From the NCBI GenBank assembly GCA_965115855.1, contig OZ220470.1, positions 1,743,385-1,807,384 on the forward strand: 64,000 nt of DNA, written 5' to 3'. The DNA is from Vicinamibacteria bacterium. Lineage in GTDB: Bacteria; Acidobacteriota; Vicinamibacteria; Marinacidobacterales; Marinacidobacteraceae. The notes beneath the pieces were generated by a model. It did no database searches. It was not told the DNA's origin and worked only from the letters and a program-made list of their open reading frames with translations. Within the stretch, counting starts at the first letter, position 1; each line of letters opens with the position of its first letter. Below, piece after piece: positions 2,905 to 57,688 of the stretch. The position numbers were made by a program, and so were the translations under genes.

Positions 2905-2980
2905 CCCGCGGCCATCGAAGACGGACGCGATGTGCCCCGGGCGGATCGGGCGCGTCCCGCTGGCGGCGCCGGCGCCCATC

Positions 2981-7997: not shown

Positions 7998-8274
7998 CCC
8001 GCCGTTGCTGATCGGGGACCACCGTCTCCGGAGTGGACTCCACCCCGCGATCCACCCTTGGCGTACCGGGCGCGTCCTTCCGGAAGACTCCGGGCAACCA
8101 GGGAACGCGCGCGCCTGTCGCGCGAACCGATCCGGGCGGCAGCGGACGGCGCATTTTCCGAAGCAGAACCCCGGCGTCGAGCCTGGAAACTCCGGCCCCC
8201 GGTTCAAGACCGCCCCGCCCGGTTGGCCCACGGCTTGCTTTGGTCAGGGAACATCTACACGGAGGTCCCACACG

Positions 8275-10668: not shown

Positions 10669-10813
10669 CCCGCCGCCGTGATCGACCGTCTCCAGGGCGG
10701 GATCGGCGCCCCGCGCCATCCCGGGTGATCGGCGGCGACGAGCTTCCCGGGGAGCGAACGTTCCGTCCCTTGTCTTGCGACAGTCTGGCCCACTGTTTGC
10801 CATTGTGCCCCCC

Positions 10814-16400: not shown

Positions 16401-17798
16401 TTCCCGCGCCTGCTTGATGGTGGCCGCCAGCCCCTCGTGCTCCAGTCGGTTGAACAGGAACGGCTTGAAGAGCTCGAGGGCCATCTTCTTGGGAAGCCCG
16501 CACTGGTGCAGCTTCAGCTCCGGCCCGACCACGATGACCGAACGGCCGGAATAGTCCACCCGCTTGCCGAGAAGATTCTGTCGGAACCGGCCCTGCTTGC
16601 CCTTGAGGGTGTCCGAGAGGGACTTGAGCGGACGGCTGTTGGCGCCCTTGATCACCCGCCCCCGGCGGCCGTTGTCGAAAAGCGCGTCCACCGCCTCCTG
16701 CAGCATCCGCTGCTCGTTGCGCACGATGACGTCCGGCGCGCGCAACTCCAGCAGCCGCTTCAGACGGTTGTTGCGGTTGATGACCTTCCGGTAGAGCTCG
16801 TTCAGATCGCTGGTGGCGTAACGGCCGCCATCGAGCTGGACCAGCGGTCGAAGGTCCGGCGGGATGACGGGAATCGCCTCCATGATCATCCATTCCGGCA
16901 GGTTGCCGGAACGCCGGAAGGCATCCACCACCTTGAGCCGCTTGGCGGCCTTGGCCCGCTTCTGGATCGACTTCGCTTCCCGCATGTCCACGCGCAGCGT
17001 GACCGAAAGTTCGTCGAGATTCGCTGCTCGCAACAGCTCCTTGACTGCCCCGGCGCCCATCCCCAACCGATAGACTGTTCCCGGACGGCGCATCTTCTCC
17101 CGGAACTCGTTGTCGGTCCGCCCGAACAGCCTCTTCAGCAGCCGATCCTGTTCGTCGGTGACCACCTGACCCACGCGGAGCGTTCCCAGCCGGATGGTGC
17201 GAATCCGGTACTCGTCGTCATCATGATCCACCGCGAAGGCGAACAGCGACTGGAGCAGCTCCACATCCTCGCGCAGCAGCTTCTGGTCCTGCTCCTTGAG
17301 CAACTCCAGGTCCAAGTCACCGGGCTCGAGCACCACATGGGACTCGTAGTACAGGACCCGTTCGAGTTCCCGGGGGGTGAGATCAAGGATCTGCCCGATT
17401 CGGCTGGGTGGCACCTTGAAGAACCAGACATGCGAGACCGGACACGCCAATTCGATGTGTCCCAAACGGTTGCGGCGCACCGAAGCCTGAGTGACTTCGA
17501 CCCCGCACTTGTCGCAGATCACGCCCCGGTGCTTCATGCGCTTGTACTTGCCGCACAGGCATTCCCAATCGGTGACCGGTCCGAATATCTGCGCGCAGAA
17601 GAGGCCGCCGCGCTCCGGTTTCTGCGTCCGGTAATTGATCGTCTCGGCCTTCGTCACCTCGCCATGGGACCAGGCACGGACCCGCTCCGGAGACGCGATC
17701 GAAATCTTGATCGCGTCGAAATCGGAGCTGAACGCCTCTTTCTCCTCGAGTTCCGGGAATACGCCGGTCGCGTCGCGACTCGTGGGTTGCGTGGACAT
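13461..17798 (-). CDS. rpoC: DNA-directed RNA polymerase subunit beta'
   Basis: 1445 aa; N-terminus ...[49 protein letters not shown]... (zinc-binding), NADFDGD active-site motif. Confidence 0.97.
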
Positions 17799-17811
17799 GT
17801 TCCGGACTCCT

Positions 17812-20800: not shown

Positions 20801-22035
20801 CGCTGCCGCCGGTACAACTCGACCAAGGCGCCCTCCACGCTCTCCGCGTTCGGGGTCTCCCCGCCTCGCAGGCGGGTCAGGGGATCCTTGGCGAGGGTCT
20901 CGGCAACATAGGGGCCCACCGGATCCACATGGGGCACGATCACCGGCAGGGTGTCGAGACCATGCAGCTCGGTCAGCACTTCGGCGGTAATCGCCGTATT
21001 CGCCGGAATCTCCTCGCCGGTGTCCGGCACCGTGACCGGTCGCGCCAGCCGGAAGCCTCCGAGCGCTTCGACCTGGAAATCGAGATGGCTCGGCGCCTTG
21101 CGGTCCAGAATCCGAAGCTCCCGGGAACCGATGCGCCGGGATCCCTTGACCAGGACCTCGTCGCCCGACTGCAGGTCACGCTCGATGCGCTGGTCGCGCA
21201 GCAGCGTCTTCAAGTCATCGGTGTAGGGAATACGGAGCCCGGTGGAAGTGATCTCCGCCTCCTGAATGGTGTAGAAACGCTCGATGATCGTCTCGGTCTT
21301 CCCGAGTCCCAACGCCCGCAGCAGAACGGTGCCGGGAAATCGCTTCTTGCGGTCGATGCGGACTTGCAGCATCCCCTTGGCATCAGTCTCGAATTCCAGC
21401 CACGACCCCCGGTAGGGCACGACCTGGGCCACATGGACGTCACGTTCCGGATGGCTGAAGAACACACCCGGCGAGCGATGGAGCTGCGAGACAACCACCC
21501 GCTCGGTACCGTTGATGATGAAGGTGCCGTTCTCGGTCATCAGCGGGATGTCACCGAAGAAGACCTCCTCCTCCTTGATGTCATGGATGGACCGCTGATT
21601 GGTCTCCGCATCCCGGTCCCATACGGTCAAGCGGATCTTCACCCGCAGCGGCACGCCGAAGGTCTTTCCCCGCTGCTGGCACTGTTCGACATCGTGTTCG
21701 ACCTTGAGGTGGACCCGATCCCCGCAGTAACCACAGACGGAATCCTGTTCCGCATGGTGGATCCCCTCCAGATCCCCGCAACTGCAAGCCCAGCTCCCCA
21801 CCGAGTACTCGAGAAAATCCAGTTCGCAGTTGTCGCGGAAATCCTTGATCGGGAAGATGGACTGGAAGACCGCCTGGAGACCGATCTCCTCCCGATCCGC
21901 GGGCTGGACGTCCTTCTGGAGGAACCGCTCGTAGGACCGGTGCTGGACCTCGATCAGGTCCGGCAACGGAATGGAGGCGTGTATACGGGAAAAGGAGTGC
22001 CGCTCCCGTACGGTTGCGGAATCGCTGATCAACAT
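17812..22035 (-). CDS. rpoB: DNA-directed RNA polymerase subunit beta
   Basis: Start taken at [31 protein letters not shown] (aligns with E. coli rpoB N-term) inside ORF 17812..22131; conserved rpoB blocks throughout. Confidence 0.95.
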
Positions 22036-22204
22036 GGAAAACACCGCGGACGGACATTTCCGGGCCGGAATTCCAGCCTGGACACGCCCCCGGAAGACAC
22101 CCGGCGCCGGGCGCCCGCCATCAGCAGGCACCCGGCCGCCGGAGGAAGAAGGAAGACCCGTCGGATCCGGGAAAAGGCCACAGCCACCAAATCGTTACTG
22201 CGAC

Positions 22205-22585
22205 CTACCTGATCTCGACCTTGGCTCCCACTTCTTCGAACATCGCGGCGGTTTCCTTGGCCTCGTCCATCGGAACGCCCTCCTTGACCGGCTTGGGCGC
22301 CTCGTCCACGAAGCCCTTGGCTTCGCGCAGACCGAGACTCGTCACTTCGCGGACCGCCTTGATGACCTGGAGTCGCTTGGGGCCGACGTCGACCAGGACA
22401 ACATCGAACTCGGTCTGCTCGGCGGCCGGCTGGGCGCCGCCGGCATCACCACCGACTGCCGCCGCCGGCATGGCCGCCGCCGCGGAAACACCAAGCTCCT
22501 GCTCGAGGGCCTTGACCAGCTCGGAAAGCTCGAGCACGGTGAGGGACTTGATGTGCGCAACCACATCCTGCTGTGTTATGGACAT
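22205..22585 (-). CDS. rplL: 50S ribosomal protein L7/L12
   Basis: 126 aa; MSITQQDVVAHIKSLTVLELSELVKALEQELGV...Ala/Gly hinge...KEAKGFVDEAPKPVKEGV... Confidence 0.97.
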   Translation of the reverse strand: MSITQQDVVAHIKSLTVLELSELVKALEQELGVSAAAAMPAAAVGGDAGGAQPAAEQTEFDVVLVDVGPKRLQVIKAVREVTSLGLREAKGFVDEAPKPVKEGVPMDEAKETAAMFEEVGAKVEIR

Positions 22586-22675
22586 TCTGACGGAGACTCC
22601 TTGCTTGGGGGAAACTCGGGAAAGCGGAAACTTCGGAGGCCGGAACCGCCGGAGCGAGTCGGGACGCGCAACGGC

Positions 22676-23203
22676 TCAGGCGTCGCCTCCGGCAGCCTTC
22701 TGTTCAGCCGCCCTCAGCACGAGGACGAATTTACGGGGAACGCCTTCGAGGACGTTCATCAGATTGCGGATCGGCGCCGCGATGGTTCCGACAACCTGCG
22801 CGCGCAGGACTTCGATTCCCGGCAGCCTGGCGAACTGTTCGAACTCGTCGGGACCGATGGGGGCGCCACCGAGCACACCCGCCTTGAACCGGAAAGCCTC
22901 GTATTCCTCGGAGCTTTCGTGAAGCGCCTTCGCGAGGGAAACCGGATCTTCCGCGCTCCACGCAAAACCGGTCATCCCGACCAGGTGATCGTCCAGCCCG
23001 GTGATTCCGACGTCCTTGAGCGCCCAGCGCGCCGTCGAGTTCTTGACGACCCGGTACACCCCTCCGGATTCGCGAATCCGACGGCGCACGTCGTCCACTT
23101 CCTGGACCTTCAACCCGCGGTAGTCGAACGTAAACACCGCGCCGCCCTTGCGGATTTCCTGTGCGAGGACGGTGGCTGCGAGCTGTTTTTCCTGGCGCTG
23201 CAT
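22676..23203 (-). CDS. rplJ: 50S ribosomal protein L10
   Basis: 175 aa; position upstream of rplL; L10-like sequence. Confidence 0.93.
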   Translation of the reverse strand: MQRQEKQLAATVLAQEIRKGGAVFTFDYRGLKVQEVDDVRRRIRESGGVYRVVKNSTARWALKDVGITGLDDHLVGMTGFAWSAEDPVSLAKALHESSEEYEAFRFKAGVLGGAPIGPDEFEQFARLPGIEVLRAQVVGTIAAPIRNLMNVLEGVPRKFVLVLRAAEQKAAGGDA

Positions 23204-23251
23204 GAGGTTTGTCCCGGAGTGTGCTCCTGATCTTGCGATCCCTGCCTGTCT

Positions 23252-23950
23252 CTACTTGGCGCCCACGAGGGCAGGGTTGACCCGCAGGCCGGGTCCCATC
23301 GAGGAACTCAGGGCCACCGAACGGATATAGCGGCCCTTGGCGGCAGCGGGGCGGGAACGCATCACCGCCGCCACGAAGGCGCGGGTATTCTCGGCGAGCC
23401 GTTCCTCCGGAAACGAGAGCTTGCCGATCGGGGCGTGCAGGTTGGAAGTCTTGTCCACCCGGAAGTTGACTTTTCCGGCCTTGATCTCCTGCACCACCTT
23501 TGCCACGTCGAAGGTGACGGTCCCCGACTTCGGACTCGGCATGAGCCCACGCGGGCCGAGAACCCGCCCCAACCGGCCAACCAGCCGCATCATGTCGGGC
23601 GTGGCGACCACCGCATCGAAGTCGAGAAAGCCCTCCTGGACACGCTGCACCAGTTCCTCGCCACCGGCGCATTCGGCGCCCGCCTCCTCTGCTTCCCGCA
23701 CCTTCTCCCCGGAGGCGATCACCATCACCCGCCGGGAAATCCCGAGTCCGTGGGGCAGCACGACCGTACCGCGCACCATCTGGTCGGCGTGCCGGGGATC
23801 CACTCCCATCCGCATGGCGATCTCGGCGGTCTCGTCGAATTTCGCATACGCGACCTTCTTGATGACCCCGAACGCCTCCTCGAGGCTCTCGGGAGCGGAC
23901 TCGTGCAACGCGCCCTTCGCCTCCCGGTACCGGTTTCCGATCCTTGCCAT
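23252..23950 (-). CDS. rplA: 50S ribosomal protein L1
   Basis: Start at MARIGNRYREAKGALHESAPESLEEAFGVIKKVAYAKFDETAEIAMRMGVDPRHADQMVRGTVVLPHGLG inside ORF 23252..24274 (start coordinate +/-1). Confidence 0.93.
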   Translation of the reverse strand: MARIGNRYREAKGALHESAPESLEEAFGVIKKVAYAKFDETAEIAMRMGVDPRHADQMVRGTVVLPHGLGISRRVMVIASGEKVREAEEAGAECAGGEELVQRVQEGFLDFDAVVATPDMMRLVGRLGRVLGPRGLMPSPKSGTVTFDVAKVVQEIKAGKVNFRVDKTSNLHAPIGKLSFPEERLAENTRAFVAAVMRSRPAAAKGRYIRSVALSSSMGPGLRVNPALVGAK

Positions 23951-23961
23951 GCCGTTGCCTC

Positions 23962-24396
23962 CTAGGCCTCCACCTCGATACCCATGCTGCGCGCGGTTCC
24001 TTCGACGATGCGGCGCGCCGCGGCGATGTCCACCGCGTTCAGATCCGGCATCTTCGTCCGGGCGATCTCCTCGACCTGGGCCGACGTGACCTTGCCGACC
24101 CGCATCCGATTCGGCTCCCCGGATCCCTTGGCAATTCCGGCGGCGCGCTTGAGCAGCACCGCGGCGGGCGGCGTCTTGATGACGAAGGAGAACGAGCGGT
24201 CGCGATATACGGTGACCACACAGGGGACGATCATCCCCTGGTCCCCCTGGGTCCTGGCGTTGAACGCCTTGCAAAAATCCATGATCGCAACGCCGTGCTG
24301 ACCGAGAGCGGGGCCCACCGGCGGCGACGGGGTCGCCTTGCCGCCGGCAAGCTGCAGCTTCACCTCGGCGAGTACCGGCTTCGTCTGCGTGGCCAT
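23962..24396 (-). CDS. rplK: 50S ribosomal protein L11
   Basis: 144 aa; ...[34 protein letters not shown]... classic L11. Confidence 0.97.
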
Positions 24397-24422
24397 GTTG
24401 CGCTCCGTCCTTCCCCTGGTCG

Positions 24423-24950
24423 TCAGGTCTTTTCCACCTGGAGAAACTCGAGTTCCACCGGAGTGGAGCGCCCGAAGATCGTCACCATGACCTTCAGCGT
24501 GCTCCGTTCCGGCTGTACTTCGTCCACGGCCCCCTGGAACCCGTTGAAGGGCCCATCAATGATGCGGACGGAGTCACCCGCCTGGAAGGAATGCCGAACC
24601 TTGGGCGACTGGCCGGCGTCCTGCATCTGATCGCGAATCCGGGTCACATCCTCTTCCGGCATCGGCTGCGGCCGGTGCGGCGGGACAAAGCCCATGACCT
24701 TGTCGGTGTTCTTGACGACCTGCCAGGTCTCCGGGTTCAACTCCATGTTGACGAGGACATAACCCGGGTAGACCTGCCGGGTCTGCACCACGCGACGGCC
24801 TCCCTTCATTTCCACCACCTTCTCGGTCGGAATCAGGATCTCCCCGATCTTCCGTTCGAGACCGTACGCCTTGGCCCGATGCCGCAGGGCTTCCTTCACG
24901 TTCTCCTCGAACTTGGAATGGGTGGAAACGATGAACCATTCATGCGCCAT
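24423..24950 (-). CDS. nusG: Transcription termination/antitermination factor NusG
   Basis: Start [18 protein letters not shown] (atg at 24950) in ORF 24423..25313; KOW motif region ...[21 protein letters not shown]... Confidence 0.93.
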
Positions 24951-24955
24951 GTCGC

Positions 24956-25168
24956 TCACCCGCCAATCAGGTCGGTGACAAAGGCGGAGATGTAGGACAT
25001 CGTCACATCCAGTCCGTAGAGATAGAAACCGAAAAAGAAGACGGTGATGAGGACGATGACGGTCGTACCCCGGACTTCGGCTCGGGTGGGCCAGGTCACC
25101 TTCTCCATCTCGCCGCGGACCTCGCCCAGGAACTCCCGGACGGCGGTGGCGCGTTCGCCCAGGCTCAC
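24956..25168 (-). CDS. secE: Preprotein translocase subunit SecE
   Basis: GTG start at 25168 preceded by GGGGAG; ...REFLGEVRGEMEKVTWPTRAEVRGTTVIVLITVFFFGFYLYGLD... single TM; longer ORF 24956..25237 has implausible N-extension. Confidence 0.85.
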   Translation of the reverse strand: MSLGERATAVREFLGEVRGEMEKVTWPTRAEVRGTTVIVLITVFFFGFYLYGLDVTMSYISAFVTDLIGG

Positions 25169-25210
25169 GGGCGCGCTCCCCCGTTTCGCGGCCGGCGCAC
25201 CGGCGGGTGG

Positions 25211-25283
25211 CAGGCCAGGAGGGGATCGAACCCCCAACCCCCGGTTTTGGAGACCGGTGCTCTGCCGATTGAGCTACTGGCCT
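25211..25283 (-). tRNA. trpT: tRNA-Trp (anticodon CCA); CCA end also encoded at 25208-25210
   Basis: Reverse complement folds as cloverleaf AGGCCAGTAGCTCAATCGGCAGAGCACCGGTCTCCAAAACCGG...GGTTCGATCCCC...; canonical location between secE and rpmG. Confidence 0.93.
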
Positions 25284-25340
25284 TCCCGCCCGCGAGCGAA
25301 AGGGTACGCCCACCCGGGAATACAGCGCGGCGCCGGATGC

Positions 25341-25505
25341 TCATCTGGACTCCCGGTGCGACACATGCTGCCGGCAGAACCGACAGTACTTGCGCAGTTC
25401 CATCCGCTCCGGATGGGTCGCCTTGTTCTTGGTGGTGGAATACGTGCGCCGCTTGCATGTGGTACAAGCGAGCGCGACGATCACCCGTTTCTTGTCACGG
25501 GCCAC
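25341..25505 (-). CDS. rpmG: 50S ribosomal protein L33
   Basis: Hand-translated 54 aa (below track size cutoff): (GTG)ARDKKRVIVALACTTCKRRTYSTTKNKATHPERMELRKYCRFCRQHVSHRESR; GAGGT RBS upstream. Confidence 0.9.
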   Translation of the reverse strand: MARDKKRVIVALACTTCKRRTYSTTKNKATHPERMELRKYCRFCRQHVSHRESR

Positions 25506-25585
25506 ATCCGCACCTCACCCGCCCCCGCGGAGAATAGGGTCGTGTCTTCACCATGGCTCACGCGCACCGCCCGGTCCGGCGGCGA

Positions 25586-26773
25586 CTATTCGAGGACCTC
25601 GCTGATCATCCCGGAGGCCACGGTGCGTCCGCCCTCGCGGATGGCGAAACGGAGGCCGCGATCCATGGCGATGGGAGTGATCAGTTCCACCTCGAGCTGC
25701 ACGTTGTCTCCCGGAATCGCGATCTCCTGGTCTCCCAGCAAGGTCGCGGTGCCGGTAACGTCGGTGGTCCGGAAATAGAACTGCGGGCGATACCCGCTGC
25801 GAAACGGCTTCTCCCGCCCCCCCTCCTTGCCGGAGAGGACATAGACCTCGGCCCGGAACTTCGTGTGCGGCGTGATGGAACCGGGCTTGGCCAGGACCAT
25901 GCCGCGCTCGACTTCCCGCCGGTCGGTGCCCCGCAGGAGAACGCCGACGTTGTCGCCAGCCTCACCCTCGTCGAGAAGCTTCTTGAACATTTCCACACCG
26001 GTGACGACGCGCTTGCGCGTTTCGCGAATGCCGACGATTTCGATGTCGTCGCCGACCTTCACCCGGCCGCGTTCGATCCGACCGGTGACCACCGTGCCAC
26101 GACCGGAAATCGAGAACACATCCTCGATGGGCATCAGGTAATCCTGCTCGATCGCCCGCTTCGGAATCGGCACGTACTCGTCGAGCGCCGTGGCGAGTTC
26201 CTTGATCGGCTCCCAGGCCTCCCCGCCGTCGGCGTTCAATGCCGCGAGGGCGCTTCCACGGATGACCGGGATGTCGTCGCCGGGAAAATCGTATTCGGAA
26301 AGCAGCTCGCGAACTTCAAGTTCGACCAGCTCGAGCAACTCCTCGTCGTCGAGCATGTCCACCTTGTTCAAGAAGACGACGATCCGGGGAACCCCGACCT
26401 GCCTGGCCAGCAGGATGTGCTCGCGGGTCTGCGCCTGGGGCCCGTCGGGCGCCGAAATGAGGAGCACCGAGCCGTCCATCTGAGCTGCGCCGGTAATCAT
26501 GTTCTTGATGTAGTCGGCGTGGCCCGGGCAGTCAACGTGGGCATAGTGCCGGTTGCCGGTCTCGTATTCGACGTGGGCGGTCGCGATCGTGATGCCGCGC
26601 TCGCGTTCCTCGGGCGCGTTGTCAATCGAATCGAAACTGCGGAACGAACCGCCGACATCGGCGGCCAGAACCTTGGTGATGGCCGCGGTCAGGGTCGTCT
26701 TGCCGTGATCCACATGGCCGATGGTCCCCACGTTGACATGGGGCTTGGTGCGTTCGAACTTCTCCTTCGCCAA
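25586..26773 (-). CDS. tuf: Elongation factor Tu
   Basis: 395 aa; [37 protein letters not shown]... Confidence 0.98.
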
Positions 26774-26849
26774 TTTGGATATCTCCTTGCGAATCAGGGA
26801 ATCGGGTGCTGTTGGAGTGTCCCTTGGGAGGGGACGGGGAGCAGGGTGG

Positions 26850-26921
<72 letters not shown>

Positions 26922-26987
26922 AGGAAAATCGGGAGCAGGAAAATCGGGTCCGGTCCGGCGCGCCGCCCGGCCAGCTCCGGGAGAGGG

Positions 26988-27060
26988 AGCGGGAGACGGG
27001 ACTTGAACCCGCAACCACCAGCTTGGAAGGCTGATGCTCTACCAATTGAGCTACTCCCGC
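26988..27060 (-). tRNA. tRNA-Gly (anticodon TCC)
   Basis: Rev-comp GCGGGAGTAGCTCAATTGGTAGAGCATCAGCCTTCCAAGCTGG...GGTTCAAGTCCCGTCTCCCGCT. Confidence 0.92.
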
Positions 27061-27177
27061 AGCCGAATGGGCAAGGGTCGGCAGAAATCTCGGATTCACT
27101 GCGGGTTGCGTCGGCTCGGCTTGCTGCTGGGGGCGAACATCGGGAAAATCCTCCTTCCGGGGTTCGGAAGGTGCGGG

Positions 27178-27260
27178 TGGAGCGGGGAGGATTCGAACCT
27201 CCGAAGGCAGGAGCCGTCAGGTTTACAGCCTGATGCGTTTGGCCGCTTCGCTACCGCTCC
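27178..27260 (-). tRNA. tRNA-Tyr (anticodon GTA), long variable arm
   Basis: Rev-comp GGAGCGGTAGCGAAGCGGCCAAACGCATCAGGCTGTAAACCTGACGGCTCCTGCCTTCGGAGGTTCGAATCCTCCCCGCTCCA. Confidence 0.9.
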
Positions 27261-27333
27261 CCCGGCAAGCCCGTTCCTCCGCCCGCAGTCAGAAGCAACT
27301 CCTTTGTGACCAAGACCGACCGCAACCGATCGG

Positions 27334-27407
27334 AGCTGGCGAAGGGACTCGAACCCTTGACCGACTGATTACAAATCAGTTGCTCTGCCTGTCTGAGCTA
27401 CGCCAGC
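27334..27407 (-). tRNA. tRNA-Thr (anticodon TGT)
   Basis: Rev-comp GCTGGCGTAGCTCAGACAGGCAGAGCAACTGATTTGTAATCAGTCGGTCAAGGGTTCGAGTCCCTTCGCCAGCT. Confidence 0.93.
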
Positions 27408-48323: not shown

Positions 48324-49528
48324 CCAGCGCACCCGCCGTCGGTGGAGGACGCCGGGCACTGCCGCCAGTGCCCACGCTGGCAGGGGCCTCGGCGCCGCCG
48401 CCGAACAACGCGGCGCCACCGTCATACCGCAGCGAGTCGGGCCGTTCTGTTGTTCGAACGCTCCGGAACGTCGTTGGCGGCGAGTTTGGCATGGATCGGA
48501 GTACGCGACCGAAACAGCAAATTGCGGGCAAGTGATGGAGGCCGCGCGCCCCCGGACCGGGGAACTGACACGACAGTTCCGGGATTCCGAGTACTGCACC
48601 CGCGAGAACCGGTCAACGATGCGGGTGATCGGCAAGGCCGAGTACCTTCCCCGGGTTACGGGAACCCCCGGTTCCGGGTTTACCAACCTGAAGCGCAACT
48701 CGACACCCGGTGTCCTTGCGAGGATCGGTACCACGCCCGCTGCGGACATGGGGACTCGGATCACCGACGTCTTCCGACACGTCTTGCGCAATCTCGAACG
48801 CATTCGCCTTGGGCGAGACCCGGGTGGCGACGGCGCCATCCCGCCCCGAAGCATCATCTCTCCCGACACCGAGGAGGCACGTCTGCGCCCCGGTTCTGAT
48901 CAACACGCGAAACACTACGAAACACGTTTCCTGACCATCCGGCTCCTCTCAATCCACATTTTCCACCATCCCAAGGTACTTCAACCGGAAAACGGAACTC
49001 CGAAACCTGCAATGGGGCACTCTCCACCAGGTTAATGGAGGCGGGTCTGATACTTGGCGTATCAAAGCCGGACAGAAACAGGTTCGCAACGCCGCGGGAT
49101 GTCCAAAGCGATCCGCTCGTCATCCGCATCCGTCTCTCGCAAGGCCAGGTTGCGATAGTTCCCTGCCTCCCGACCCTCCGGATAAATCACCGGTTCGGAC
49201 TACCGTATTCCATCGGCCAAGACCTTCTTCAGACTCTCCGCCAGAAACTCGAGACCTGTCGCCGGACACTCTCCGCCGCTCATCCAGCAATTCGCGCGAG
49301 GCGCGGTCGGCACACTTCATGGCCATTCGTCAACTCCTTGCAAAACGCACCGCACGTCCCCACCCCATCCCGAGCTTCAAACAGTTCCCACCGTAAGACC
49401 CGCAATCTCACGCATCCCCCCCAACATCACCCCGGCTCGCCCACCCACCCACCCTTAAAACAACCACACCCGTCGTGTAGTTGCTGCCGCGAGGCGGCGC
49501 CGTGCCAATCCCTGATCGAAACTCCTAC

Positions 49529-49535
49529 AGGAGGT
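49529..49535 (+). promoter_or_regulatory. Strong Shine-Dalgarno (AGGAGGT) 7 nt upstream of lipoprotein A start codon
   Basis: ctacAGGAGGTaggtgatATGaaa. Confidence 0.6.
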
Positions 49536-49542
49536 AGGTGAT

Positions 49543-51846
49543 ATGAAACTGAATCCCCCCAATGGGCGGCACGCCATCAGTCGCTGGCGCCCGGTCTCGG
49601 TGGGCCTCGCGTTGGTCTTGGGAATCGGTCTGCTCGCAGCTTGTGGCGACGACGATCCTGCCCCCGCTCCGGCCCCCGCTCCGGCCCCCGCGCCAGCTCC
49701 CGCTCCAACTCCAGAGCCAGAACCGGAACCCAAACCCGAACCCAAACCCGAACCCAAACCCGAACCCAAACCAGAGCCGGAACCAGAACCCGATCCCTTC
49801 GTCCTCTCAATGGCTCCCCCCAAAGCCGACGCGGACAAAGACTGCATGGGGTACGCTTTCTGCCCAGATGAAGAAACTGACGCCAAAAAAGCCATGGCCT
49901 CTCCAAACTCCATGATGACCGTCTCCTCCTCTCACGACGCCGTCATCACCCCCCTCTGGATGGATTCAGAACCCAACGGTATCGGTGTCTCCGCAGCCGA
50001 CGACAACATGCCCTTCAAAAATGTCGACTGGAACGCCATGCAATCCACCGTCGCAAACATGGGCGTCTCTTTCAAAGCCGTCAGAGTCTCCATCGGCGCT
50101 AACCAAGAAAAAATCCCAACCTCCGAAATCCTCTACATCACCTGCGGCCCATTCGCCTGCTCCGACGCCGCAGCCGAAAAACCCCAAGCTCCCGAAATCT
50201 CCGCCGAATCCACCAACATCTGCGCCAACTGGGACCCCGATCTTACTCTACAAGTCGGTATGATCGATAATGATACGAGAAGTACGTCGGGAGCTTGGTA
50301 TACCAACAAGATTATCCCAGCGTATGATTCGCTCGGCGGTACTAGAAGTGATGCCACGCATTACGATTTTTTGGATATAGTGTCAACAACAAGAACAACA
50401 AATGCAAGTATCTGGTACGCTGATGACGGAATCGATATCGGATGGTCGTCGACTTCCGATGTGGACATGAAAGTCAAACATGTCTTCGGAAACTACAGCG
50501 TCATGGGACCAGATGCGAATAAAGGTACGAACAAACCTCTCAATGTCGATCTTAAAGCGGAGAATGTTTCCTACGCCCCCGCCGTTCAAACAACCAAATT
50601 GACTGTTGATGCTGCTGATAGAACCGCAACTACTTCAGATAAAGTTGACAAACTGTCCGAGGCCTGTGTCGATGCAACCAAATACTCAGGCGTTAGCGGT
50701 TCAGCCCAAAGACCAAACAATTGTTTCCGCCTTCGAGTTTCCGGCACGGAAACTGCCGGGTTTGTAGGAACCCCGAGATTGACGAACCACCTCTCCAGTT
50801 ATAGTGTGGAAGTCTCTCCCAAGGACCCCATGCTCTGGGGCAAGGTCGCATGGAAGGATGGTCCGCTCAAGGATCTCAAATGCGAAACCATGCGTTTCGC
50901 CGCTGCCGACCAAATTGATGTCTGCGAACTCTTCGAAGAGGAGGTCGATCACGCTCTGTCAGGCGGTTGGGACGACGTCGAGGTGAAGGGTAGTAAGCGT
51001 AAGCTCGTCAATCCACGTGATGGTATGGGAGTAGAGCATCCCTATGCCGGTCTCGTGCGAGTTTTTCTCAAAAACGCATCAAGCGTAAAACCTCGGCACT
51101 TCCGGAGACTCTGGTTCGACGACAACATGGATGGAAGCATCGTGGATAAAGCAGAGACATTTGGATACCAATATGTGTTGAATTTCGACGAAGAAGCAAC
51201 CGAACGAAGTGGCAATAACCCCGCACACGGCAAAGAGGGGAGTGGCTGGGATATAAAGCCAATATCATTTGGTCAGACATCGGCTCTCGAACCGGTTAGA
51301 CTTTCTCGGAGAGCGAGCGATCTGTACAATTATAATGATTACACTGAAACCCCAGGCTCCGTGTCAAATGACGGAGACTACATTAAGGCCTTTAATGTCA
51401 ATGCCATCTGGACACCAGTAGTCGACCAAAATCTTCTTCCCCTTCCTAAATACGGCGACTTTGGGAAGGTTGATGTTGCAAAGACTACAGTAAACGACGC
51501 CTCCACAACCAGGTCAGTTGAAGCTGCTGTAGATGGAGACGGCATAGCCGATAACTACTACGGCATTCCCGCCAGATGCTCGGATGAAGACGGCGGCAAG
51601 GGGTGCGATGCGAAGTGGGAAGAGGACTTCGAGATTCTCTTTTCGGATCTCATCTTCGGCTGCGAAACAACGCACGCCGTGACCATCAGTTGTGAATGGG
51701 ATGCCCAAGGTACATTCGGGAGGCCCCCGGAGAAGCATGCAATAAAGGACGGTACAACGGGTGGTGACGACAGCGTAGCAGATTACGAATACGCGAGACT
51801 TCTTATCAAAGAGATAGATCATTTCGCCAAGTGCACCGTGGAATAG
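49543..51846 (+). CDS. Variable surface lipoprotein A: signal peptide + lipobox (LLAAC), Pro-rich PAPAP/KPEP linker, Cys-containing domain of unknown family (expression copy)
   Basis: 767 aa; MKLNPPNGRHAISRWRPVSVGLALVLGIGLLAACGDDD...; low-GC (~45%) body vs ~70% host; ends ...HFAKCTVE; intact RBS. Confidence 0.75.
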   Translation: MKLNPPNGRHAISRWRPVSVGLALVLGIGLLAACGDDDPAPAPAPAPAPAPAPAPTPEPEPEPKPEPKPEPKPEPKPEPEPEPDPFVLSMAPPKADADKDCMGYAFCPDEETDAKKAMASPNSMMTVSSSHDAVITPLWMDSEPNGIGVSAADDNMPFKNVDWNAMQSTVANMGVSFKAVRVSIGANQEKIPTSEILYITCGPFACSDAAAEKPQAPEISAESTNICANWDPDLTLQVGMIDNDTRSTSGAWYTNKIIPAYDSLGGTRSDATHYDFLDIVSTTRTTNASIWYADDGIDIGWSSTSDVDMKVKHVFGNYSVMGPDANKGTNKPLNVDLKAENVSYAPAVQTTKLTVDAADRTATTSDKVDKLSEACVDATKYSGVSGSAQRPNNCFRLRVSGTETAGFVGTPRLTNHLSSYSVEVSPKDPMLWGKVAWKDGPLKDLKCETMRFAAADQIDVCELFEEEVDHALSGGWDDVEVKGSKRKLVNPRDGMGVEHPYAGLVRVFLKNASSVKPRHFRRLWFDDNMDGSIVDKAETFGYQYVLNFDEEATERSGNNPAHGKEGSGWDIKPISFGQTSALEPVRLSRRASDLYNYNDYTETPGSVSNDGDYIKAFNVNAIWTPVVDQNLLPLPKYGDFGKVDVAKTTVNDASTTRSVEAAVDGDGIADNYYGIPARCSDEDGGKGCDAKWEEDFEILFSDLIFGCETTHAVTISCEWDAQGTFGRPPEKHAIKDGTTGGDDSVADYEYARLLIKEIDHFAKCTVE
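49726..49773 (+). repeat. 12-nt tandem repeat (gaacccaaaccc; KPEP) x4 in linker of lipoprotein A; 2-3 copies in mirrored position of copy B
   Basis: Direct reading of sequence; in-frame copy-number difference between paralogs. Confidence 0.8.
49743..50274 (+). repeat. Left arm of perfect 532-bp inverted repeat (identical to 54150..54681 rev-comp) inside 5' part of lipoprotein A
   Basis: Identical six-frame ORF translations on opposite strands (49966..50187 vs 54237..54458; 49985..50263 vs 54161..54439; coordinate sums constant 104424) plus manual rev-comp comparison to boundaries. Confidence 0.9.
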
Positions 51847-51885
51847 GACCTACTTCCTGTTGATCTGATCGCTGTCGATCAGTCC

Positions 51886-51924
51886 AGAACCCCGGGGCTA
51901 TTCGGCCCCGGGGTTCTTCATTTG
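51886..51924 (+). terminator. Rho-independent terminator downstream of lipoprotein A (13-bp GC stem agaaccccggggc/gccccggggttct, then ttcattt)
   Basis: Perfect hairpin immediately after stop codon 51846. Confidence 0.7.
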
Positions 51925-52176
51925 CACATAAACCGGCGCGTGACAGCGACGCAAACCGACACGCTTCACAAGTTTGTTCAATTTGGGTGTTCGAAACCCG
52001 CTTCGCGGGCGTATCCCGGATCGGGTTCCCGTGGTTCGACGGACCTGACCTCTTCCCGTTGACGAACTGAGGTGATCTCGGGTCCTTGGACAGTTTGAGG
52101 GCTTGGTCAGGGTGCAAAAGGTCATCCCTTCGTGATCGTCGAATTCGCCCGAACGGGTGAACCCTGGCTTGTTTTC

Positions 52177-52440
52177 TCCGCCGGATCCAGGATCACCGGG
52201 AAAGTCGAATCTCGCGATTGGCTCACGACCTTACGACAAGAGTCCCTCGCCATAGGCTTCGGCGGGCGTCCGCCCTCCGAGGGCCGAGTGCGGGCGCTGG
52301 GTGTTGTAGAACCGCATCCACTCCCCGATCACTCGTTCGGCCGCGAACCCGTCGGCGAGCTCGTGGAGGTACACCGCCTCGTACTTCAGGGACCGCCACA
52401 GCCGTTCGATGAAGATGTTGTCGAGGAGCCGCCCGCGACC
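52177..52440 (-). mobile_element. IS3-family transposase remnant (C-terminal rve/integrase fragment + probable terminal inverted repeat TGAACCCTGGC...), 5'-truncated
   Basis: ORF 52231..52488(-) contains ...LLDNIFIERLWRSLKYEAVYLHELADGFAAERVIGEWMRFYNTQRPHSALGGRTPAEAY (IS3 OrfB C-terminus); only ~65 aa present. Confidence 0.7.
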
Positions 52441-52486
52441 GTCCATTGAGAGCCGGGTACCCGCCGCCGCGTTAGGTTCATGTGCC

Positions 52487-52523
52487 AATGAAGAACCCCG
52501 AGGCCATCCGGCCCCGGGGTTCT
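52487..52523 (-). terminator. Rho-independent terminator downstream of lipoprotein B (mirror of the 51886..51924 hairpin, one mismatch)
   Basis: gaaccccgaggcc-atcc-ggccccggggttc on + strand; followed on minus strand by ttcattgg. Confidence 0.6.
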
Positions 52524-52562
52524 GGACTGATCGACAGTGATCAGGTCAACAGGAGATTGGTT

Positions 52563-54824
52563 CTATTCCACCGTGCACTTGGCAAAGTTGTCAACGTTCG
52601 CGCGACCGGCGATATCAGCCACGCCGAGTTTGCCTTTCACCCTATTGTCGTTCCCAGTTTCCGACGCAGGAGGAAGATTGTTCAACAGGCCTTGGGCATC
52701 CCACTCGCAACTAAGGGTCACCGTACGCGTCGCTTCGCAACCGAAAATGAGATCCGAGAACAGGACCTCGAAGTCCTTTTCGAACTCGGCGTCGCAGGCC
52801 TCATTGCCCGCGTCACCATTGTCGCCTTTGGAGCAGGTGGAGGAACCGGCGGGATAATTGTCGGCCACGCCGTCCGGCTTGGCCAAATCTTTACCATAGA
52901 GATCCACTTTCCCGAAGTCTCCGTAAATGGGCATCATCCCGCCATCCGTGAGTGTCCCCCAAATGAAGTCGATATTCCGATTGTGAAAATACTCGTGATC
53001 GGATGCATTAATACCAGATATCTCGTGGGGGGAGGCGTCTCCACGGTTAACAAACCCGTACAGGTCATGAATAACACGAGCCAAAATGGTACCTCTTGAT
53101 GGGATAGAATCCCTTGCGGATGTAGTACCAGGGGCAGCATCGAAATAACCTAATTCGTTGCTATTTCCCATCACTACCAAACCGTCCTTGAAGTAGTCCA
53201 AACTCTCTTCTTCTCCGTCGTCGGCGGTCGGGTGTTTGAATGCCGCCCCTGCATTGCCTTCTGCTATGCTAGAGCCCCGAGCTTCACTCTGAAGAAGCGT
53301 ATTGGGACCGTCGGCAACCGACCCATCCAAGTTGTCATCGAACCAGAGCCGCTTAAACCGCTTGGGCTTCGGGCGGCCTCCTTTGGGGCCGACCTGCCAA
53401 GTAGCCAGAACAAATCCGCCGTCTGCTCCTTCTACGATACTCCCTCGGTTATTCTCACTATCTGAGTTGCTGTTCGCCGCAATGCGCCGTTTGACATTTA
53501 TCCTGACGTCGCCCCAGCCCTTGGCCAAGGCTGCATCGACCTCGTCTTCCAGGAGTTCGCAGACGTCAACCTGATCGGCAGCGGCGAAGGACATGGACTC
53601 GCACTTCAGGTCCTTGAGCGGACCCTCTTTCCATGTGACTTTGCCCCAGAGCATGGAGTTGGAGTCCTTTGGAGAGACTTCCACGCTGTATCCATCCAAG
53701 TGGTTCGTCGTGCGCGCCCGACCCGGGCCTCTGACAAGACTTTCAGTTCCACCGACGCGGACGCGGAAACACTGGTCCGGTTTTTGGACACCACTGCGCG
53801 AAGAAGAGTAATCGACATCAACGGCGCACGCGTCTTTCAAATTCCCGACTTTTTCCAACACAGGAGTGGCCGGCGTGACCGGCTCCTTGATTTTATCGAC
53901 TTGGATGGCGGGGGCGTATGTGGTCCTGTTGGCAGAGTCGACCGTGAATGGTTTGTTCGTACCTTTTTTCGCATCCGGCCCCATGAAGTTGTAATTACTG
54001 AAAACATGCTTCACGGTCATGTCCACACTGGAGGTCGACACCCAACCGAGATCGATTCCGTCGTCTTCGGCCCAGATGTCTGGATTTGATGGGTTGGCGC
54101 CTAGATCATGAATAGTCCTGTTTTCAAATCTACCTCGCATATCATAGATATCATTATCGATCATACCGACTTGTAGAGTAAGATCGGGGTCCCAGTTGGC
54201 GCAGATGTTGGTGGATTCGGCGGAGATTTCGGGAGCTTGGGGTTTTTCGGCTGCGGCGTCGGAGCAGGCGAATGGGCCGCAGGTGATGTAGAGGATTTCG
54301 GAGGTTGGGATTTTTTCTTGGTTAGCGCCGATGGAGACTCTGACGGCTTTGAAAGAGACGCCCATGTTTGCGACGGTGGATTGCATGGCGTTCCAGTCGA
54401 CATTTTTGAAGGGCATGTTGTCGTCGGCTGCGGAGACACCGATACCGTTGGGTTCTGAATCCATCCAGAGGGGGGTGATGACGGCGTCGTGAGAGGAGGA
54501 GACGGTCATCATGGAGTTTGGAGAGGCCATGGCTTTTTTGGCGTCAGTTTCTTCATCTGGGCAGAAAGCGTACCCCATGCAGTCTTTGTCCGCGTCGGCT
54601 TTGGGGGGAGCCATTGAGAGGACGAAGGGATCGGGTTCTGGTTCCGGCTCTGGTTTGGGTTCGGGTTTGGGTTCGGGTTTGGAGCGGGAGCGGGAGCGGG
54701 AGCCGGGTGGGTGGGTGGGATGGTGGATGCTGATAGCGGAGGCGGCGCGGTACCCGAGGAGACTTGGCGCCCGATTGATCCGTGGGGCCGACGGGCGGTG
54801 TCCGACAAGGGCGCACAGGTTCAC
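52563..54824 (-). CDS. Variable lipoprotein paralog B (5'-truncated/silent cassette candidate): lacks signal peptide; 5' 532 bp identical to copy A, remainder diverged and mosaic
   Basis: 753 aa ORF starting at GTG with non-hydrophobic N-terminus MNLCALVGHRPSAPRINRAPS...; PAPAP linker segment is out of frame with KPEP segment relative to copy A; ends ...NFAKCTVE. Confidence 0.6.
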   Translation of the reverse strand: MNLCALVGHRPSAPRINRAPSLLGYRAASAISIHHPTHPPGSRSRSRSKPEPKPEPKPEPEPEPDPFVLSMAPPKADADKDCMGYAFCPDEETDAKKAMASPNSMMTVSSSHDAVITPLWMDSEPNGIGVSAADDNMPFKNVDWNAMQSTVANMGVSFKAVRVSIGANQEKIPTSEILYITCGPFACSDAAAEKPQAPEISAESTNICANWDPDLTLQVGMIDNDIYDMRGRFENRTIHDLGANPSNPDIWAEDDGIDLGWVSTSSVDMTVKHVFSNYNFMGPDAKKGTNKPFTVDSANRTTYAPAIQVDKIKEPVTPATPVLEKVGNLKDACAVDVDYSSSRSGVQKPDQCFRVRVGGTESLVRGPGRARTTNHLDGYSVEVSPKDSNSMLWGKVTWKEGPLKDLKCESMSFAAADQVDVCELLEDEVDAALAKGWGDVRINVKRRIAANSNSDSENNRGSIVEGADGGFVLATWQVGPKGGRPKPKRFKRLWFDDNLDGSVADGPNTLLQSEARGSSIAEGNAGAAFKHPTADDGEEESLDYFKDGLVVMGNSNELGYFDAAPGTTSARDSIPSRGTILARVIHDLYGFVNRGDASPHEISGINASDHEYFHNRNIDFIWGTLTDGGMMPIYGDFGKVDLYGKDLAKPDGVADNYPAGSSTCSKGDNGDAGNEACDAEFEKDFEVLFSDLIFGCEATRTVTLSCEWDAQGLLNNLPPASETGNDNRVKGKLGVADIAGRANVDNFAKCTVE
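54150..54681 (-). repeat. Right arm of perfect 532-bp inverted repeat (see 49743..50274)
   Basis: As for left arm. Confidence 0.9.
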
Positions 54825-54970: not shown

Positions 54971-57688
54971 CTATGGCTCGGTGGAACCGTTGGTTCGGTA
55001 TCCCAGGCTGAGGAGGTTGGCGAGCAGTCGGTAGGCGCCCGGCGTTCCCTCCGGGAGCTGGCGCCACAGGCCGAGACCCAGATAGAGCCAGCGACCCTCG
55101 CCGTGACGGATCTCCACGAGGATGCCGCGCTTCTCGCCAGCGTTGTACGGGAAGGGATCCTCCGACGCCAGCAGGTCGATCGCGGCGGGATCGTCGCCGG
55201 TCTCGAGGAAGTAGAGGCCCCGCTCCTGGACCCATCCGTCCCAGTCGGCGGGGCCGATGCGGTTCGGGCCGAGAAAGACCGGATGATCGGGAACCAGGAC
55301 CTGCATGGGCGCATTCTCGTCGGTAATGCGGCCGCGTCCGACCCGAATCGGTGAGGGCGCCCAGGGGCCGGCATTGAACTCGAACTTGTTGTACTGGACG
55401 AGGAGGGTGCCGCCATCCGCCACGAAGTCCAGCAGGCGCTGGTTGTAGGTGCGGAGGTCGGGGCGGGCGAGATAGGCGCGCACGCCGAGCACGATGGTGT
55501 CGAATCGGGAGAGGTCGCCCTCCGCGAGATCCTCCTCATCCAGGAAGGTCAACGAAACGCCCAGTTGGCCGATGGCCTCCGCCACCTCGTCTCCGACGCC
55601 CTCCACCCAGGCGACCTTCACCGGGGCCACCGTCGCGTCCAGAACCCGCGCCAGCGCCTCCGCCGGGCGGAAGCGATACCGGGTCTCGATGTGGTGGTAG
55701 GCGATCGTCTCGACCGTCTCCCCGAAGACCGTGCCGTCCGCCAGCCGGACTTCGGCGGCGAGCCGGTACCCACCATCGGCGACGCCCGCGGGAACCGTGG
55801 CCTCGAAGGCGACGCCCTGCTCTCCGGGGCCGGAAAAACGGAGCGTTGCGGATGCCGGACGCACCTCCCAGCCGGATGGTGCATCAAGACCGACCTCGAC
55901 CTCGGCCTCCTCCACGCTTCGCCAGGTCACCCGCACCGAGAGGGAGCGGGTTCGTTGCCCCCGGGGAAACACCACGATCGGGGGTGTCACCCGAACCGCG
56001 GCAAGCGGCAACACGGAAACCTCCTTCTGCTTCTCGGTTCCCACGAAGGGACCGCCATAGCGATACGCGACCGGCAGGGTGACGCTTGCGGGAATGTCGT
56101 CGGTCTCGAAGTCCACCCGGGCGCGGACCGGGGACGGAGGCGCGGCGGCCCCGAAGAGCGACGGATCGGAAGCGACGAACCGGTCCCGGCCCGGCGCCGC
56201 GTCGAATACCTGCCGACTGAGCGTCGCATCCGCTGCCGCGGTCACCCGGAAGGAGGCGCGGACCGCATCGCCTGTCGCCATCTCCACCGGGAAGTCGGCG
56301 CCGACCACCACCGGTCGCGCCTGCGAACGGGATCCGCGCCCCCGGGCCGGGGGTTGCGCATTCGGCCCGGTCTCCCAGCCGTCCGGGGTCTCTATCGAGA
56401 TCCCGGTCAGCGTCAGCGGTTCCGAACCGCCCGCCTGCACGAAGACCTCGGCCCCGAAGCTTCCCCCCGGAACCACTTCGCCGGCGTCCGCCACCGGATG
56501 CGTCAGCAACCCGTGGGCGAGCGCGAGTGCTTCCTGAATCTGGACTTCCTTGGGGGCGACGCGGTGCCGGATCTCGAGGACGGCGCCCGGATCCAGGTCG
56601 GCGGAGACCTGAAGCACCCGCCGCGCGGCGATCAGGGCTTCCCGGAGCGCCGGGATGGACTCGTGGGGTGATGTGGAGGAAAAGGCCCACTGCGCACCAC
56701 CGACGGCTCGTTCGAGATCGCCGAGAGCCCGCTCGGTGGCGACGACCGCGTCCGGGTCTCCATGCACGAAGGCCCGCAGCCGTTCCAGCCCCACTGGAAT
56801 ACCCGGGAAGAGATCGTTCTCGCCGGTCTCCGAAACCAGATTCCGCATTTCCACCAGGACCGCCGGCCCGGACGCCGGGGCGCCGCGCACCTGTCCCATC
56901 CCCTGACAGCGGTGCGCCGAGCGGGCCTCCTGACCGAGGTCCGCGTATGTCCGCCCGAGCAGCGGATCCCAGATCGCGGTGTCCACCCGCACTACCCGGT
57001 CCCCGGCGACGGTGCCCCCCCCGACGCCCCCCACGAAGAGCTTGAGCGGTTGCCAGGGACGCAAACCGAGTTCCCGATGCTCGGGAAACCGCTCGGCGTC
57101 GCCGGCAGCGTCGAAGGCTTCGATGGTGATCCGCCCGGTCGCCTGGTGGTGCTGGCCGCCTCCCTCGCCCGCGGGTGGGAGGGTCAGGATCACGTCGGGA
57201 CGAAGGGTCCGGATCATCCGCACCACTTCACCGAGCGTTTCCTCGTGGCCCCACTTCTTGAGGGTCTCCTCGACACTGAACGAGTATCCGAAATCGGAGA
57301 CCATCCCGAAGAACTGTTCCACCGCGTCCAGCCGGTGCGAGGTGAGGAGTTCCTCGGTGCGCAGGATCCGGAGGCCGTCAAACAGTTCGGGGCCGATCTC
57401 GTTCTGACCGCCGCCGCCCCGGGTCAGCGTCAGCAGCGAGACCCGGGCCCCCATCCCTCGGGAAAGGCGGGCGTGGAGGGCGTTGTTCTCGTCGTCCGGG
57501 TGGGCCGTGATGGTGAGGACGGAGACGCCGCTTTCGATCTTGCGCAGCTTGAGCCCGAGGCCGGATGCGCCACGATCCTCGGCGAGGGGGCGGAGCTGTG
57601 CAGCGGTCGGAGCGGCAAGCAGCAAGACGAGCAGCGGGGCGGCTGCCGCTAGGACTGCCCGCACTCGGTGCGTGGATGCGGTGATCAT
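54971..57688 (-). CDS. Secreted PIG-L/LmbE-family N-deacetylase fused to large C-terminal domain (905 aa)
   Basis: Signal peptide MITASTHRVRAVLAAAAPLLVLLLAAPTAAQ; ...LTITAHPDDENNALH... PIG-L motif. Confidence 0.75.
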   Translation of the reverse strand: MITASTHRVRAVLAAAAPLLVLLLAAPTAAQLRPLAEDRGASGLGLKLRKIESGVSVLTITAHPDDENNALHARLSRGMGARVSLLTLTRGGGGQNEIGPELFDGLRILRTEELLTSHRLDAVEQFFGMVSDFGYSFSVEETLKKWGHEETLGEVVRMIRTLRPDVILTLPPAGEGGGQHHQATGRITIEAFDAAGDAERFPEHRELGLRPWQPLKLFVGGVGGGTVAGDRVVRVDTAIWDPLLGRTYADLGQEARSAHRCQGMGQVRGAPASGPAVLVEMRNLVSETGENDLFPGIPVGLERLRAFVHGDPDAVVATERALGDLERAVGGAQWAFSSTSPHESIPALREALIAARRVLQVSADLDPGAVLEIRHRVAPKEVQIQEALALAHGLLTHPVADAGEVVPGGSFGAEVFVQAGGSEPLTLTGISIETPDGWETGPNAQPPARGRGSRSQARPVVVGADFPVEMATGDAVRASFRVTAAADATLSRQVFDAAPGRDRFVASDPSLFGAAAPPSPVRARVDFETDDIPASVTLPVAYRYGGPFVGTEKQKEVSVLPLAAVRVTPPIVVFPRGQRTRSLSVRVTWRSVEEAEVEVGLDAPSGWEVRPASATLRFSGPGEQGVAFEATVPAGVADGGYRLAAEVRLADGTVFGETVETIAYHHIETRYRFRPAEALARVLDATVAPVKVAWVEGVGDEVAEAIGQLGVSLTFLDEEDLAEGDLSRFDTIVLGVRAYLARPDLRTYNQRLLDFVADGGTLLVQYNKFEFNAGPWAPSPIRVGRGRITDENAPMQVLVPDHPVFLGPNRIGPADWDGWVQERGLYFLETGDDPAAIDLLASEDPFPYNAGEKRGILVEIRHGEGRWLYLGLGLWRQLPEGTPGAYRLLANLLSLGYRTNGSTEP

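Follow-up and report, generated by a model that had tools for sequence, protein, structure and literature searches.

A candidate recombination-driven variable surface-lipoprotein locus in a Vicinamibacteria genome

Known switching systems and the lipoprotein locus

To our knowledge, nearly every described case of programmed surface-protein variation comes from a pathogen or from one of a few gut commensals. In the sap locus of Campylobacter fetus, studied by Blaser and colleagues, homologues reportedly share an identical 5′ region of about 0.5–0.6 kb that reaches into the coding sequence. Inversion there is said to be homologous, with a single set of expression signals and no dedicated invertase beside the locus; the genes are reportedly divergent, with the promoter on the invertible segment that separates them, and the product is said to be a type-I-secreted S-layer protein. 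Here we analyse a pair of convergent, paralogous genes of a lipoprotein family, A and B, in a 64,000-nt stretch of a Vicinamibacteria bacterium genome (GenBank assembly GCA_965115855.1, contig OZ220470.1, positions 1,743,385 to 1,807,384 of the forward strand), the whole of which is called the window below. The 5′ parts of the two genes form perfect inverted arms of 534 nt, and B keeps an intact frame despite lacking the leader that A carries. From sequence evidence, we put the probability that this locus is a selected, recombination-driven variable surface-lipoprotein system at about one half.

The sap locus is the closest working analogue, with long identical 5′ regions, one site of expression and inversion that proceeds by homologous recombination, no dedicated invertase being involved. 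At our locus the identical region likewise extends into the open reading frame (ORF), since the 534 nt are 100% identical between A and B and the protein encoded there is identical in four copies. Regarding the expression site, within the window A alone has a ribosome-binding site (RBS), an ATG and a leader, and two further copies elsewhere on the chromosome (P0001 and P0003) seem, from their gene calls, to lack a leader. In contrast to sap, the invertible segment here would carry the variable bodies and not the promoter, and the genes are convergent and not divergent. Our locus encodes a lipoprotein that carries a Sec/SPII leader and is unrelated to the sap proteins in sequence and fold, and inversion is deduced from geometry.

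In the vsa system of Mycoplasma pulmonis, silent genes lack their 5′ ends (PMC4534519). Like vsa, the G segment of phage Mu and the shufflons, our locus would join a constant 5′ part by inversion to alternative 3′ bodies. However, those systems use short crossover sites and a dedicated recombinase nearby, whereas here the repeat is 534 bp long and Pfam detected neither a serine nor a tyrosine recombinase among the predicted genes scanned from 38.7 to 63 kb; the sole recombination-related match in that interval was a transposase remnant. The lack of a site-specific recombinase among these scanned genes fits RecA-type recombination on long arms. The initial annotation had likened the locus both to sapA inversion and to pilin shufflons, and of these the first likeness stands while the second fails on arm length and on the missing recombinase. 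Site-specific inversion of the kind performed by Mu Gin, vsa HvsR or Bacteroides Mpi was rejected on the same two grounds, the sites of such systems measuring about 15–35 bp. A diversity-generating retroelement was given brief consideration; Pfam scans of the neighbouring genes, with no dedicated search for such elements, gave no reverse-transcriptase domain.

In gonococci, a 16-bp parallel quadruplex upstream of pilE is required for pilin variation (PMC4412290, PMC3547852). Like pilE/pilS, our locus has one gene with expression signals and silent copies without the 5′ end, and would rely on RecA-type recombination. Moreover, a short-loop G-quadruplex (G4) motif, GGGTGGGTGGGTGGG, lies upstream of A on the complement of its coding strand, which is a parallel at the level of sequence. 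This template-side polarity appears to match that of pilE, as far as the latter can be inferred from the description of the oppositely transcribed small RNA (sRNA). In contrast to pilE/pilS, the silent copy here has a G4 motif next to it as well, the proteins are of unrelated families, the arm is far longer than the conserved segments of pilin genes, and gene conversion is a proposal. A promoter for a pilE-type sRNA was not found either, as the promoter scan gave no sigma-70-like site at the locus on either strand.

Poly-G and poly-C contingency tracts are known in surface genes of Campylobacter, Helicobacter and Neisseria. Paralogues in a related genome, which we call the sister genome (2.86 Mb, RpoB 90% identical), resemble such genes in having tracts of C10 to C19 between the start codon and the signal peptide, in mixed frames. 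A differs from them, because the same site holds only an in-frame C6 (49555–49560) and the 5′ coding region has no long homopolymer or tandem repeat for slipped-strand phase variation; hence variation in the window genome would need recombination and not slippage.

Inverted arms and the gene family

A repeat search showed that the two arms (Table 1), each 534 nt long, are inverted and 100% complementary, with a gap of 3873 nt between them. Their perfect inverted identity had been recognised at the outset with a length of 532 bp, the coordinates then being one base off at each end. As proteins, A and B are 53% identical (BLASTP), with conserved blocks alternating with gapped blocks, in keeping with the 50–60% first described for these convergent paralogues, and their first ~160 aligned residues are identical. 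In a codon-level comparison, the 161 arm codons gave synonymous and nonsynonymous divergences (dS and dN) of 0, whereas the 472 aligned codons outside the arm gave dS ~1.6, dN ~0.50 and dN/dS ~0.31. This contrast far exceeds chance and, since dS is 0 in the arm and ~1.6 elsewhere, points to recent homogenisation of the arm over anciently diverged genes. The locus forms a low-GC island, with a GC content of 0.51–0.61 over 49–55 kb and 0.66–0.71 on both sides, as had also been described. An assembly artefact had been named in the initial annotation as a finding that would overturn its reading. The gene bodies between the arms, at only ~58% identity in DNA, make a foldback or duplication unlikely, and the genes flanking the locus are exact matches to proteins of a 3,016,700-bp public contig.

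By the features of bacterial lipoproteins (positively charged n-region, hydrophobic core and lipobox [LVI][ASTVI][GAS]C), A qualifies and B does not. The predicted signal peptide of A, MKLNPPNGRHAISRWRPVSVGLALVLGIGLLAAC, ends in …RWRPVSVGLALVLGIGLLAA-C34, and its RBS context, CCTACAGGAGGTAG, recurs before one paralogue of the sister genome (L004). The product of A is missing from a collection of 15 billion proteins, both as the full-length sequence and from Met90, and the homologue search did not return it either. That collection does contain, from the same contig, the neighbours of A as well as B itself (called from an internal Met). Probably A was skipped by the gene caller as a low-GC ORF, or another start was called. 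Its absence is not informative, since the same search missed three called paralogues of the sister genome. We also considered whether the public assembly represents the inverted state, and rejected this explanation, as the product then predicted, 'MAPPK… plus A body', is equally absent.

The 1.2 kb between a luciferase-like gene and A (48324–49542) is C-rich and has no convincing gene. Neither its ORFs nor a hand-assembled ParE-like frame gave a Pfam match, Rfam gave none, and no similarity to the loci of the sister genome was seen. In its last ~650 nt the skew of C over G is extreme, with up to 30 C-runs and 3–4 G-runs per 534 nt. This stretch may serve as a leader or promoter region, or may be what is left of a decayed gene.

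Homology of B to A begins within the Pro-rich spacer. Upstream of the arm of B, none of the three frames holds a signal peptide or lipobox, the DNA gives no alignment to the leader of A, and no RBS precedes either candidate start (GTG at 54824 or an internal ATG). The 5′ extension does contain a PAPAPAP-like repeat, one base out of frame with the arm. Despite the missing leader, B keeps 753 open codons and all 34 of the 34 residues that are invariant in the family. The variable body begins with ACGAGAAGTACGTCGGG in A and with ATCTATGATATGCGAGG in B, and both genes terminate in the motif …FAKCTVE, which is followed in both by a conserved 3′ untranslated region (UTR) and a terminator hairpin. 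The two 3′ regions are complementary at 86% over 112 nt, and the conserved 3′ UTR and terminator may thus form a second block of homology.

Beyond low-complexity matches of the spacer, A and B gave no Pfam or NCBIfam family, nor any relative in the PDB, which agrees with the initial description of an unrecognisable protein family. Among 5.8 billion proteins, 128 homologues were found, with uninformative names (hypothetical or FN3-domain labels only); a few come from metagenome-assembled genomes labelled Acidobacteria, and the remoter ones have an extra FN3 domain. The RpoB of the window, 100% identical to its counterpart on the 3.0-Mb contig, places the genome among uncultured Acidobacteriota, the nearest named relative by RpoB belonging to Vicinamibacterales (~59% identity). 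An AlphaFold2 model built with 72 homologues (pLDDT 76.6, pTM 0.75) predicts a chain of beta-sandwich modules. Its low-confidence segments coincide exactly with the variable blocks, and the first of them begins right after IDND. The family alignment, in which B is the row P0002, has 34 invariant columns, and 14 of these are cysteines.

At least four copies in the same genome (A, B, P0001 and P0003) have identical N-terminal regions of ~150 residues. P0001, which is 76% identical to A, and P0003 are on the same 3.0-Mb contig as the locus. Protein identity of the four copies extends from at least MGYAF… to …QVGMIDND, and all of them diverge at the very next codon. The gene calls for P0001, P0002 and P0003 each start at an internal Met, whereas copies of the sister genome with an in-frame leader were called from that leader, which suggests that these three have no in-frame leader. 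Hence the two-copy picture given at first was incomplete, as the chromosome carries, in other places, no fewer than two additional copies that share the identical N-terminal domain; and since the locus is not a closed two-copy system, dispersed gene conversion would be at work as well. In its multiple copies, constant N-terminal domain and variable loops, the predicted lipoprotein family behaves as a variable surface-protein family.

A regular-expression scan of the whole 64 kb for the strict G4 pattern (G3 N1–3)x3 G3 gave four motifs, all of them at the outer edges of the two arms. The 15-mer GGGTGGGTGGGTGGG occurs twice in the window, compared with ~0.0014 occurrences expected from base composition, and one copy (49440–49454) stands next to the expression locus, as a sequence motif of the pilE type. 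The other two motifs are formed by the (GGGTTY)n complement of PEPK codons, which marks the outer edge of each arm. At every strict motif the lipoprotein gene has its template on the G-rich strand. These flanking motifs may help to initiate recombination. The idea that the two GGGTGGGTGGGTGGG copies are the relic of a longer duplication was discarded, since flanking homology did not exceed the shuffled background. Composition of the arms is also unusual: third codon positions have 5–14% G and 51–62% C, and third-position G is ~37% in typical genes of the window and ~50% in the sister paralogues, including their homologous domain. Unlike the arm, the variable bodies are A/T-rich at third codon positions. 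Nowhere in the window is GC skew stronger than in the arms and in the 650 nt preceding A.

The sister genome holds at least 15 paralogues, dispersed or in tandem (12 from the homologue search and three seen only in fetched loci), and 5′ ends were read for eight of them. In seven of the eight, a poly-C tract lies 3–4 codons after the start and is followed by a lipoprotein signal peptide. Tract lengths are C10, C19, C15, C12, C14, C13 and C15, although assembly error in homopolymer length is possible for any single one; two copies are in frame and five out of frame. The eighth copy, P0009, is leader-bearing, in frame and without a tract. As read from these sequences, the 5′ layout is that of textbook slipped-strand phase variation and marks a contingency family. 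By this layout, the same family is phase-variable in the sister genome. Moreover, the N-terminal domains of sister paralogues are 89–94% identical in DNA and the remainder 68–92%. Concerted evolution of the 5′ domain is, to judge by these alignments, a family-wide trait, with 100% identity reached only in the window genome.

In related genomes, poly-C tracts with the same 'TTA-Cn-GAAA' context occur outside the lipoprotein family as well. A C20 tract at 21221–21240 of L004 is intergenic and precedes an SLFN_AlbA_2 gene, and a C19 tract (read as G19) at 2467–2485 of L006 lies just upstream of a giant FN3/Big_12 protein of 3959 aa; these suggest that poly-C contingency tracts are in use at several loci of the lineage. 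Elsewhere, in two further genomes, members of the family adjoin phage-type tyrosine integrases (Arm-DNA-bind_3 and Phage_integrase) and insertion sequence (IS) elements (L005, 188–1534 and 14205–14292; L006, 4377–5603), and there the family appears to ride mobile islands.

Proposed mechanism and competing explanations

We propose that the family of A and B, present in multiple copies, consists of secreted lipoproteins that are Cys-rich, have a beta-sandwich architecture and combine a constant N-terminal domain with a variable body. In the window genome A alone would carry the signals for expression and export, and B, probably together with the two further copies, would be a promoter-less and leader-less store of alternative variable bodies. 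Ongoing homologous recombination would keep the 534-bp 5′ segment identical across copies. RecA can be expected to promote reciprocal crossover between perfect inverted repeats of 534 bp that are separated by 3.9 kb. Given the opposite orientations of A and B, such a crossover would flip 50276–54148 and place the body of B behind the RBS, signal peptide and constant domain of A, a consequence of the geometry that the initial annotation had drawn correctly. According to our model, arm inversion would act as a two-state switch, and the bodies of dispersed copies could enter by non-reciprocal gene conversion, with homology supplied by the 5′ arm on one side and by the conserved 3′ end and terminator on the other.

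This reading of a variable lipoprotein system is supported by the intact frame of the leader-less B and by the identity of four copies to the same codon. Contingency tracts in the sister genome, G4 motifs flanking the arms and the lack of an invertase among the genes scanned support it as well. It also implies that recombination occurs at a useful rate and is selected for, which we infer. A full system of the antigenic-variation type in an uncultured, non-pathogenic lineage of Acidobacteriota, with one expression site, leader-less cassettes, a pilE-like GGGTGGGTGGGTGGG at the arm edge starting RecA-mediated inversion or conversion, and poly-C slippage in its place in the sister lineage, seems unlikely.

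Several points weigh against the variable-lipoprotein reading. The inverted state is deduced from geometry and was not observed, and the sharp shared boundary could arise passively if conversion tracts stop at an indel-rich hypervariable loop. The initial annotation had given A alone a promoter-proximal RBS, a signal peptide and a lipobox; RBS, leader and lipobox are indeed there, but a sigma-70 pattern scan found no promoter for A on either strand. Among the other copies, the C-terminus of P0003 is frameshifted, consistent with decay, and the 5′ truncation of P0001 and P0003 is read from gene calls only. Searches of the JGI metagenome and GTDB genome collections gave no occurrence of the exact arm sequence. 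Moreover, nearly all sister paralogues examined have kept their leaders, which suggests that the ancestral strategy was one of independent genes and not of cassettes, and B may be a mere recent deletion product.

These points bear on a neutral form of concerted evolution, in which B is a 5′-deleted pseudogene from an inverted duplication that lost promoter and signal peptide, routine conversion keeps the 5′ domain identical, and inversions may occur without a selected role. We regard this, the main rival, as a real possibility, though one that we doubt. In the sister genome, too, the N-terminal domain is the most similar part of the paralogues, and nearly all of these retain their own leaders; an IS3 remnant between A and B, together with IS elements and integrases beside family members elsewhere, indicates rearrangement-prone islands, and the frameshift of P0003 fits neutral decay. 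However, B, though leader-less, keeps a 753-codon open frame and every invariant residue, and the 100% identity of four copies here exceeds the 89–94% of the sister genome. Non-random G4 motifs at the arms and the poly-C tracts, an independent sign of selection for switching in the family, also speak against neutrality. Part of the perfect identity might instead come from assembly, if polishing let the consensus of one repeat copy bleed into another and the true arms are only similar. The genome is a metagenome-assembled single contig of 3.0 Mb, and short-read polishing can homogenise repeat copies; yet all four copies lose their identity abruptly at one shared codon, the flanking DNA is well resolved and a 534-bp repeat is easily spanned by long reads. 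We consider such exaggeration improbable. It is compatible with the other readings, and the interpretation would be unchanged even at ~98% identity.

It is very improbable that both genes function independently, with B lacking a lipoprotein leader, transcribed by read-through from the upstream gene of the PIG-L family (54971–57688, same strand) and translated from GTG 54824 or an internal ATG. The frame of B is open to 54824, it lies 146 nt downstream of that same-strand gene, and a T-rich terminator was not detected between them. On the other hand, the upstream region offers a signal peptide in no frame and an RBS at neither candidate start, and a protein with 14 invariant cysteines and a beta-sandwich of extracellular type is unlikely to have a cytoplasmic role.

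A literature search found no earlier description of this lipoprotein family or of phase variation in Acidobacteria; within the scope of that search, the phylum and the protein family are without an earlier description of such a locus. If the variable-lipoprotein reading is true, contingency strategies operate in environmental or symbiotic uncultured Acidobacteriota, where phages, grazers or a host would be the likely pressures. On the less likely reading as a full antigenic-variation-type system, two switching strategies would have evolved on one previously undescribed surface-protein fold. The locus offers a new, structurally uncharacterised family of surface proteins with clearly marked constant and variable parts, and a possible link between G-quadruplex motifs and recombination arms.

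Feature coordinates and neighbouring genes

Table 1. Features of the locus, in window coordinates
Feature	Position	Strand	Remarks
G4 motif GGGTGGGTGGGTGGG	49440–49454	−	89 nt upstream of the ATG of A; template strand
RBS AGGAGGT	49529–49535	+	7 nt before the ATG of A at 49543; from sequence
Gene A	49543–51846	+	Complete lipoprotein gene, 767 aa; within the window the sole copy with start codon, signal peptide and lipobox
Signal peptide of A	49543–49644	+	Predicted; ends in lipobox L-A-A-C, Cys34 (codon 49642–49644)
Pro-rich spacer of A	49645–49800	+	~50 residues, PAPAP…PEPKPEPK…
(CCCAAACCCGAA)n in spacer of A	49729–49767		G3N3 repeat/G-quadruplex motif on opposite strand; outer edge of arm A
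Arm A	49742–50275	+	Constant 5′ segment: spacer end and N-terminal domain to …QVGMIDND; 100% identical to arm B
Putative invertible segment	50276–54148		Both variable bodies, both terminators and IS remnant; deduced from arm geometry
Variable body of A	50276–51846	+	GC 45–57%; low-confidence AlphaFold2 loops coincide with variable blocks
3′ end, 3′ UTR and terminator of A	51823–51934	+	Hairpin 51886–51917
IS3-family transposase remnant	52231–52488	−	C-terminal 85 aa only; between the terminators
3′ end, 3′ UTR and terminator of B	52475–52586	−	Hairpin 52492–52523
ORF B	52563–54824	−	753 aa
Variable body of B	52563–54148	−	Frame open; all family-invariant residues kept
Arm B	54149–54682	−	Constant 5′ segment of the start-less copy; repeat search
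G3N3 motif	54657–54677		Inside edge of arm B; (GGGTTY)n complement of PEPK codons
5′ extension of B	54683–54824	−	Non-homologous open frame without start context, signal peptide or lipobox
Second GGGTGGGTGGGTGGG	54705–54719	+	22 nt beyond the outer end of arm B; oriented to its gene as the first motif is to A

The transposase remnant was identified by Pfam rve_3 (5.8e-16) and NCBIfam transpos_IS3 (3e-20, profile positions 298–368 of 369). By Pfam, the genes flanking the locus are purH, tenA, selA, thiG, nth and genes for a luciferase-like oxidoreductase and PIG-L-family, SSF, CLC and DsbA proteins, all of them with housekeeping functions.

Farther away in the window, positions 517–13153 hold five tandem paralogous genes of ~790–890 aa that are mutually 77–84% identical, the first of which matches Pfam Peptidase_S8. 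At least four of them have a visible lipobox and an N-terminal Pro-rich spacer, making this a second expanded lipoprotein family in the window. A housekeeping block follows at 13461–27407, with rpoC and rpoB (identified by gene order together with the RpoB search), probable rplL, rplJ and tuf (by gene order alone) and a cluster of tRNA genes for Trp, Thr, Gly, Tyr and Thr.

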